Shown one piece after another: positions 19,160 through 20,499 of a stretch of DNA of 20,808 bases. Position 1 is the stretch's first letter. Each line of letters begins with the position of its first letter. The notes below the pieces were generated by a model. The model made no database searches, was not told the origin of the DNA, and saw only the letters and a list, made by a program, of their open reading frames with translations. Source of the DNA: a virus; the UHGV virus genome UHGV-0102213; one strand, given 5' to 3'. The translations under genes were made by a program, and so were the position numbers.

Positions 19160-19338
19160 CTTGTTTTCCTCGCACGTTCTCTAAGCCACCGGATATCCCA
19201 CAGGTGAGCCGTGTAGTTGAAGGTTTTTACATCAGATTCTTTTGGGATTGGCTTGCGTTTATTTCTGGAGCGTTTCGTTGGAAGGTATTTGCAGTTTTCG
19301 CAGATGATGTCGGTGATACTTCGTCGCTGTCGTCTCAT
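19156..19338 (-). CDS. ninE: NinE
   Basis: Track ORF 19156..19428; lambda-like start at [52 protein letters not shown], which overlaps the methyltransferase stop as ATGA. Confidence 0.85.
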
Positions 19339-19862
19339 GCCGCCCTCCTGACGCCCTGCCCGATCGCCATCAATGCCGCTTTGGATACGGTAGTAAACAT
19401 CCGTCGATGACTGATGAACGGTCGCCAAATCAGCAGCATTGAGCCTTTGCTGTTTCCCTTCTTCTCCAGCCCTGTCGATGGTTCGATAAAATTAATCCGT
19501 CCATCAGTGATAATGCGAACTTCGTCGACACTCTCCAGAGCCTTGCTGAACCATCCGACTGACATATCCTCTGGCACAAGCATCACTACCGTCTGTCGCT
19601 GTTGTATGCACTGCTCAGCGGCTTTTTCCACCCACGGCCTGATATTGCTGTACGGTGGGTTATTCCAGATTGCACCGTGGCTTACCCACTCAGAATTGAG
19701 CGCGTCGTCGGCCTCAGTTAGCCAGTGAGCACACAGAGCATTTTTGTCGCTCGCTGCCGAATCCAGCCAGAATCCAAACTCAATATCCAGTGCATCAAAA
19801 AGCCAAAGCGGCGTTTGCCAGCAGTCCTTGTCGTGTGCTGGCGTATTTGATTTGATAGTCAT
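19335..19862 (-). CDS. Phage DNA N6-adenine methyltransferase (Dam-like), with no restriction partner in the window
   Basis: Track ORF 19335..19889; preferred start ATG 19862 ([18 protein letters not shown]...) with an AAGG Shine-Dalgarno sequence and ATGA overlap with the ninB stop. Contains the NPPY motif ([10 protein letters not shown]) typical of amino-methyltransferases. Occupies the position of lambda ninC/ninD. Confidence 0.85.
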
Positions 19863-20305
19863 GCAGCCTTCCCTTTTCGTTGTGACCATTCATACTCTCG
19901 CCGGGAGTCATCACTCCACCGCACGTTGCGCTCTGAGCCGAACCAGAACATGATTTCGATAAGCTCAGTCATGCTGGCCTTTCGCATTTTGCTGGTACGC
20001 ACGCCAAGCATGACAACGCCACCGTCGATACCAGGCACACTTCTTTGCTCCAGTTTTTTGGTCTTAAGCCACAGGGCAGTGAACAGGTCTTTCCAGTCTT
20101 CCGGTGCCAGCCGTTGACCATGCCATAGCACCTGACGCGAAACATCGTTCAGCATCGGCCACATACGGTCATTCTGCGCTTTGCTGCGCTTGGGTTCTTT
20201 AACGTGGACTTCGTGGGGTGACTTGTCGTCGATGGGTAGTGAGAGAATGGCGTCTATGGCGTTATTTCTGATTGCTTCGTTGCGAAGCAGAAAGGTTTGC
20301 TTCAT
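19859..20305 (-). CDS. ninB: NinB / Orf-family recombination mediator
   Basis: Track ORF 19859..20344 opens on TTG. The likely start is ATG 20305 (MKQTFLLRNEAIRNNAIDAIL...), which aligns with the lambda NinB N-terminus and conserved DQNR..W....VSRQV.WHG core from recall. Confidence 0.85.
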   Translation of the reverse strand: MKQTFLLRNEAIRNNAIDAILSLPIDDKSPHEVHVKEPKRSKAQNDRMWPMLNDVSRQVLWHGQRLAPEDWKDLFTALWLKTKKLEQRSVPGIDGGVVMLGVRTSKMRKASMTELIEIMFWFGSERNVRWSDDSRREYEWSQRKGKAA

Positions 20306-20499
20306 CTCCTGCTCTCCGGTTCCATTTTTCAGCCGCCGCAGCAACTGATGGTGCCCATGCCCCCCCTGGCTTCACAGAGGTCACATTCTGCATAGCCCCA
20401 CACATCAATATTTATTCCGGCCTCAACCCACAGACGAGCATTACCGCCGCAAAACGGACATTCTTTTAGCTTTGGCTGGGTCAATGATAGGTCGCTCAT
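20262..20499 (-). pseudogene. Lar-family (RalR-like) restriction-alleviation gene interrupted by a frameshift at a G7 homopolymer
   Basis: ATG at about 20499 with a GGAG Shine-Dalgarno sequence. The N-terminal frame gives MSDLSLTQPKLKECPFCGGNARLWVEAGINIDVWGYAECDLCEARG and then stops after about 56 codons. The adjacent frame continues AWAPSVAAAAEKWNRRAG... to a TAA near 20262. The two frames join if the G7 run (plus-strand C7, about 20360..20366) is one base shorter. Confidence 0.55.

Follow-up and report, generated by a model that had tools for sequence, protein, structure and literature searches.

An M.EcoVT2Dam-like methyltransferase gene and a frameshifted lar allele in the nin region of a lambda-like prophage

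The Dam enzymes of phages HP1 and T1 are GATC-specific. For M.EcoVT2Dam of phage VT2-Sakai, which has been termed an orphan methyltransferase (MTase), the same site has been given: it 'is known to target 5′-GATC-3′' (PMC6602927, citing Radlinska and Bujnicki 2001). Here we analyse the UHGV virus genome UHGV-0102213, a stretch of 20,808 nt referred to below as the window, in which an N6-adenine MTase gene and a Lar-like gene sit in an otherwise lambda-like nin region. A first reading of this sequence (hereafter the original prediction) took the two genes for an anti-restriction island and held that the target of the MTase could not be read from its sequence. We consider it very probable that the locus is a DUF7301-lar-ninB-dam-ninE cassette in a lambda-like prophage of Escherichia coli or a close relative, that the MTase is an allele of M.EcoVT2Dam, a GATC methylase topping up the methylation of phage DNA, and that the lar copy is frameshifted.

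The Lar protein of the Rac prophage, the namesake of the second gene, is reported to alleviate type I (EcoKI) restriction, a finding said to go back to King and Murray in 1995; to our knowledge, EcoKI alleviation has been shown only for this protein. In the MG1655 annotation Rac Lar appears as RalR, and it is now described as a non-specific DNase toxin belonging to a type I toxin-antitoxin pair (PMC4041452). What is gained here is mainly corrective, namely that the methylase target can be predicted as GATC and that lar is frameshifted in this copy. It carries little weight as a discovery; earlier publications and RefSeq already cover the cassette with its annotation, as well as the specificity reported for the enzyme. 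The recurrent lar frameshift and a single-residue allele of the MTase are mildly interesting by-products.

The methyltransferase and its predicted GATC target

The assignment to the N6-adenine MTases, originally made from an NPPY motif, agrees with two profile families whose cut-offs are far exceeded: PF05869 'Dam' is matched with E 4e-64 and 215.8 bits (cut-off 28.1) over profile positions 1-167 of 169, and the equivalog TIGR01712, 'phage N-6-adenine-methyltransferase', with 264.3 bits (cut-off 97.05). PHROGs likewise classes the protein as a DNA methyltransferase, and its best PADLOC match is orphan MTase (oMTase). It is identical to VT2-Sakai Dam (M.EcoVT2Dam) at 174 of 175 residues, P152H being the sole difference, and the VT2-Sakai counterpart is annotated 'dam: DNA N-6-adenine-methyltransferase'. 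Because of this near-identity (99%) to a characterised enzyme reported as GATC-specific (PMC6602927), the target is in fact open to prediction, contrary to the first reading: the window MTase would recognise GATC, the same site as host Dam.

Conservation was followed in an alignment of the window protein with 40 Enterobacterales homologs of 59-98% identity (41 sequences in all). The NPPY motif (N68-P69-P70-Y71), T17-P18, L33-D34-x-A36 and 40 other positions are invariant in 41/41 and present in the window protein, and the catalytic motifs are thus intact; their disruption would have told against the original prediction. Foldseek searches with an AlphaFold2 (AF2) model (predicted local distance difference test, pLDDT, 74; predicted template modelling score, pTM, 0.76) returned weak matches, none with E ≤ 0.001 and all with a template modelling (TM) score ≤ 0.42. 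Nearly all of the top matches were N6-adenine or S-adenosylmethionine (SAM) MTases, among them TrmM, CamA, E. coli Dam and CcrM; this list fits the class of SAM-dependent Rossmann MTase folds and carries no information on specificity. A sequence search returned no related protein among solved structures.

The orphan status that had been proposed also agrees with the gene content. No cognate restriction endonuclease occurs among the named products of the homologous regions covering the window, although not every open reading frame (ORF) of the window was scanned directly; these named products are lysis, morphogenesis and nin genes, with a few hypothetical proteins besides. Judged from its sequence and context, the MTase is real, intact and orphan within the window. 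A tblastn search detected members of its family in 1911 out of 50,697 phage records; T1-like phages are among them, with identities of 30-43%.

A non-specific prophage adenine methylase of the M.EcoGI/GII, Hia5 or phiOS31_p25 type was considered as well and rejected: the window protein matches PF05869 only, which suggests that the families are distinct. M.EcoGIX turned out to be plasmid-borne. The HP1/VT2 family goes unmentioned in the paper on non-specific MTases (PMC3299994).

Taken as a mechanism, the proposed reading would run as follows. A Stx-type (Shiga toxin) cassette would have recombined into a lambda-like siphovirus prophage, and would have brought in a small orphan enzyme of the HP1/T1/VT2 'phage Dam' family that forms N6-methyladenine (m6A) at GATC. 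With its place in the nin operon and a tR2-like hairpin upstream, the gene is probably delayed-early: lambda biology would lead us to expect transcription from pR under N antitermination in the lytic cycle, and silence in the lysogen. Lambda DNA is methylated at 46% of GATC sites on a wild-type host and at 77% with Dam overproduced (bioRxiv 10.1101/2025.08.29.673000), and the virion DNA of P22 and lambda is undermethylated (PMC8022706). By analogy, the MTase would complete the GATC methylation of fast-replicating phage DNA, which limiting host Dam may leave about half methylated. A plausible, if unproven, pay-off would be that progeny DNA escapes restriction enzymes which cannot cut methylated GATC, whether they act at GATC itself or at overlapping sites. 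In near-identical phages, MTase and Ral-type proteins have been listed as anti-restriction functions by a DefenseFinder analysis (PMC12502783); for the MTase, such a benefit is suggested at the level of annotation and likewise unproven.

The proposed way of finding the target, a methylome of the lysogen versus a cured strain, would probably be uninformative for this MTase, because host Dam masks GATC and the gene is probably silent in the lysogen. Host Dam methylates about 99.9% of GATC sites, and Dam and its phage homologs were not separable in methylome data (PMC6602927).

Several points weigh against the reading of a GATC methylase that tops up phage DNA. Residue 152 (codon 19407-19409) is Pro in 37 of the 41 aligned sequences, Ser in three and His in the window protein only, and P152H could conceivably lower the activity of the enzyme. 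A protein identical throughout, H152 included, is encoded on 118 contigs, one of them a complete genome, and judged from these H152 is a circulating allele. The GATC assignment of the VT2 enzyme reportedly came from restriction-digest assays, by Radlinska and Bujnicki in 2001; digest assays alone would miss a broader specificity, and a wider specificity of VT2-type Dam, or a role beyond GATC protection, might have been overlooked by them. The host is already Dam+, which makes it hard to see what a second GATC methylase would bring. In addition, GATC is depleted in the 20,808-nt window, with 58 sites observed versus 103 expected (Markov), a ratio of 0.56 that makes it the second most depleted 4-base palindrome there after CTAG; the phage both avoids GATC and encodes its methylase, which is not as full reliance on methylation would predict. 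A consensus scan for promoters and terminators gave site counts not above those of shuffled sequence. Finally, what Dam enzymes do for phages has been called 'still not well understood' (PMC7556043).

The frameshifted lar allele

What had been called a Lar-like gene stands as far as its linkage to the MTase is concerned (60 of 62 loci, see below); this copy, in contrast, is frameshifted and falls below the Pfam and NCBIfam cut-offs. The window lar carries one extra G, that is, a G7 run (C7 at 20360-20366 on the + strand) versus G6 in VT2-Sakai, phi24B and E. coli M15. Counted from 20499, the ATG used in reference annotations of lar, its product changes frame after ...CEARG and ends at 56 amino acids (aa), keeping the four-Cys zinc-ribbon part without the conserved C-terminal WNRR segment. 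The intact (G6) product has 78 aa (MSDLSLTQPKLKECPFCGGNARLWVEAGINIDVWGYAECDLCEARGAWAPSVAAAAEKWNRRAGDE...) and its gene overlaps ninB by 44 nt; at 20262-20359, where the window has an out-of-frame 3′ remnant, the intact allele encodes AWAPSVAAAAEKWNRRAGDE....

The family scores follow the loss of the C-terminal part. Against Pfam Lar_restr_allev (PF14354, cut-off 28.6) the window product reaches 25.9 bits over positions 2-33 of 58, versus 41.3 bits over 2-58 for the intact VT2-Sakai protein, and against TIGR03655 it scores 39.1, just under the cut-off of 39.6. The PHROGs label is 'Lar-like restriction alleviation protein'. An identical allele in E. coli O157:H7 EDL933 is called a 'frameshifted' pseudogene by the Prokaryotic Genome Annotation Pipeline (PGAP). 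The window lar is probably non-functional, and a sequencing error in this window could conceivably account for the extra base. Since lar is frameshifted, a two-gene anti-restriction island would have at most one working gene here.

The G7 allele is not confined to this window. Exact scans of IMG/VR found G7 in 5 contigs and G6 in 73, and neither G5 nor G8 in any contig. G7 stands on at least 4 haplotypes; for three of them (window, L004, L005) there is a G6 twin that differs by no single-nucleotide polymorphism (SNP) over 763 nt. Of the 491 complete-genome records carrying lar, 22 match an 81-nt G7 sequence exactly, and the exact truncated product is found on 812 contigs. In a collection with one genome per species, exact scanning for the G7 allele gave no match. 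Translation of lar ends 44 nt inside ninB in the G6 allele and 24 nt before the ninB ATG in the G7 allele. That the run is a recurrent slippage switch (a contingency locus), toggling a Lar/RalR-type protein in lambdoid prophages, strikes us as very improbable; the idea of a VT2-type Dam of wider specificity or role is separate from it. Such a switch, if there were one, could tune anti-restriction or toxin activity within a prophage population, and perhaps NinB translation as well.

Layout of the nin region and spread of the cassette

The features of the locus, in the order of transcription, are:

20764..20782, minus strand: terminator-like GC-rich hairpin of 8 bp with a T-rich tail, a consensus scan match in a tR2-like position
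20510..20725, minus strand: DUF7301 gene, 71 aa, first of the cassette (PF23975, E 6.7e-26; phrog_1785)
20329..20499, minus strand: frameshifted Lar-like ORF, 56 aa counted from the ATG (aligned with VT2-Sakai and phi24B; Pfam, TIGR03655)
20360..20366, minus strand: homopolymer at which the +1 frameshift arises, read as G7 in the coding strand and as C7 in the + strand (G6 in the references)
20262..20359, minus strand: out-of-frame lar 3′ remnant overlapping the ninB start (ORF list; translation of the VT2-Sakai allele)
19859..20305, minus strand: ninB, Orf-family recombination mediator, 148 aa (PF05772, E 9e-49, full profile; phrog_72)
19335..19862, minus strand: orphan phage N6-adenine DNA methyltransferase, 175 aa (PF05869, TIGR01712, PHROGs, PADLOC, alignment)
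19156..19338, minus strand: ninE, 60 aa (PF05322, E 3e-43; ATGA overlap with the methyltransferase stop)

Downstream of ninE, the ORF list and Pfam place ninF, ninG, ninH, a Ser/Thr phosphatase gene and Q (ending at 17054) on the minus strand, and all seven collinear nin-operon genes (ninB, ninE, ninF, ninG, ninH, phosphatase and Q) are matched by their own Pfam families. The position of the MTase was rightly given as that of ninC/ninD, which in lambda lie between ninB and ninE. Its ATGA coupling to both neighbours is also as described: the ninB stop overlaps the MTase start at 19862-19859, and the MTase stop overlaps the ninE start at 19338-19335. According to ORF coordinates and sequence, stop/start junctions between the nin genes are ATGA or GTGA, the ninE/ninF and ninG/ninH junctions of the window being overlaps of the same style, and ATGA coupling is the rule for nin genes across lambdoid phages (PMC8022706). 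Since the coupling is generic to nin genes, it gives no sign of a special functional unit at the MTase.

Upstream, the hairpin at 20764-20782 is a putative terminator by virtue of its position, the place of lambda tR2, which suggests that the cassette needs N antitermination for expression. The DUF7301 gene, which bears this family name in the annotations of E. coli M15 and EDL933, had no PADLOC or NCBIfam match; it accompanies lar-ninB-dam in every related locus examined. Scanning all of the window for Rfam families and tRNAs gave no hit, and hence neither a RalA-like small RNA (sRNA) nor the tRNAs of Stx phages. The phosphatase ORF (17533-18279) is listed from a TTG, with 248 aa and an overlap of 98 nt with ninH; its homologs are annotated at about 221-223 aa, and the real start is probably an internal ATG (MRYYERIDG...).

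The cassette is widespread. With 19100-20808 as the megablast query against phage records, 406 records were matched; in 114 of them a single place spans 80% or more of the query, with an identity of about 98%, and VT2-Sakai, phi24B, Min27 and many Stx1- and Stx2-converting phages are among these 114. Of 5426 complete E. coli genomes, 487 have the cassette at a coverage of at least 80%; PGAP already names its genes there, and existing annotations of its copies read Dam, Lar and NinB. Related loci with sufficient flank number 62; in 60 a full-length MTase follows lar and ninB, and the other two have no MTase match. By these matches, it is an already known, standard nin-region cassette of Stx-type lambdoid phages.

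Comparison of backbones points to mobility. The window has that of a lambda-like siphovirus prophage, free of tRNA and stx genes, and the closest copy of the cassette (99.9%) is in E. coli M15, in a P22-like phage whose morphogenesis region is P22-like, not lambda-like. The closest prophage to the window overall is that of E. coli MS 196-1 (L082; 95% coverage, 97% identity). There, at 26399-27024 (versus 19156-20305 of the window), ninB is joined directly to ninE, with neither methylase nor lar, and the MTase therefore appears as a swappable cassette; cassettes at ATGA junctions are polymorphic for presence and absence. Elsewhere in the nin region of MS 196-1, HNH endonuclease genes are inserted. 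The question raised is why so many phages encode a GATC methylase, although their hosts are Dam+, and at the same time deplete GATC; similar prophages that differ in the presence of the cassette between ninB and ninE would be a convenient natural system in which to address it.

Rival readings and comparison with known systems

The anti-restriction island of the original prediction would be a dedicated unit in which the MTase protects phage DNA and Lar alleviates type I restriction, both acting early; we hold this only as a tentative possibility. The tight linkage of lar and MTase in 60 of 62 loci is real, and the intact Lar-like protein, at 36% identity to Rac Lar/RalR, keeps the four Cys and WN(R/K)R. 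The Lar label of PHROGs and the published listing of MTase and Ral as anti-restriction-modification functions in near-identical phages (PMC12502783) point the same way, and undermethylated phage DNA would be vulnerable to m6A-sensitive GATC cutters. However, the island dissolves into a standard Stx-phage cassette whose lar is frameshifted in this window and under both family cut-offs, whose two supposed partners are separated by a recombination gene, ninB, and whose ATGA coupling is that of nin genes generally. Moreover, GATC methylation shields only from enzymes with GATC-containing sites and duplicates host Dam, and the Lar homolog reaches 18 bits against the Rac RalR equivalog (cut-off 113), restriction alleviation being suggested by homology only. 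The recombination neighbours, ninB (Orf) immediately upstream and ninG (Rap) downstream, would rather suit an MTase that serves phage DNA transactions: full GATC methylation would remove MutH discrimination and cleavage as well as SeqA binding, favouring recombination and replication. Such a role is consistent with the replacement of lambda ninC/ninD by the MTase in the same operon; Dam+ hosts make a function beyond simple protection attractive, and the function of phage Dam is acknowledged to be unresolved (PMC7556043). Yet the rise of lambda GATC methylation from 46% to 77% left mutation frequency and mismatch-repair efficiency unchanged (bioRxiv 10.1101/2025.08.29.673000), and in a region as mosaic as nin, adjacency says little about shared function. 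We find this role unlikely.

The lar alleles lend themselves to another view, which appears quite unlikely to us: the Lar-like gene would encode a RalR-type DNase toxin, and the recurrent change from G6 to G7 would reflect counter-selection in prophages or a mutational on/off switch. The present standing of Rac Lar as the DNase toxin RalR (PMC4041452) argues for it, together with the at least four distinct G7 haplotypes, three with a zero-SNP G6 twin, the truncated product on 812 contigs and the G7 allele in 22 of 491 complete-genome records, all beside an MTase that is full-length in 60 of 62 loci (no MTase match in the other two). Against this stand the mere 36% similarity to RalR, with an equivalog score far under the cut-off, and the lack of a RalA-like sRNA or any Rfam family in the window; as a hotspot of slippage a G6 run is modest, with G5 and G8 never seen, and the large contig counts may reflect clonal O157 sampling. 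That the H152 MTase is inactive through P152H, and the cassette a decaying remnant, is highly unlikely in our judgement. The distribution at position 152 (Pro in 37/41, Ser in 3/41, His in the window only) and the already frameshifted neighbouring lar would agree with decay, but every catalytic and invariant position is intact, residue 152 is C-terminal to the most conserved core, and the occurrence of the exact protein on 118 contigs, including a complete genome, argues that H152 is not a one-off lesion.

Among the closest known systems, M.EcoVT2Dam (VT2-Sakai dam, BAA94133; 933W L0094) occupies the same slot between ninB and ninE and has the same DUF7301 and lar genes upstream. VT2-Sakai differs in what follows: it has roi and other genes after ninE, whereas the window has ninF-ninG-ninH-phosphatase-Q in a lambda-like siphovirus backbone. 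To the wider HP1/T1 Dam family (PF05869, TIGR01712) the window protein is linked by a full-length profile match with the invariant NPPY, its T1-like phage members being about 30-43% identical to it.

Host E. coli Dam (PF02086) shares with the phage enzyme the reported target, GATC, and the product, m6A. There is no detectable sequence relationship between the two (Pfam gives PF05869 only for the window MTase), the structural similarity of host Dam to the AF2 model is weak (E 0.03, TM about 0.3), and with its 175 aa the phage enzyme is far smaller. Rac Lar/RalR (b1348) is 36% identical to the intact lar product over 58 residues (E 9e-10) and has in common with it the CPFCG...CxxC zinc ribbon and WN(R/K)R; Rac lar adjoins recET, whereas the window lar lies in the nin region, is frameshifted and is without the C-terminal motif. 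The lambda nin region itself offers the same operon, flanking genes and ATGA-type junctions as the window, with ninC (3′-phosphoadenosine-5′-phosphosulfate (PAPS)-reductase-like) and ninD where the window has the MTase, and ren where the window has DUF7301 and lar.

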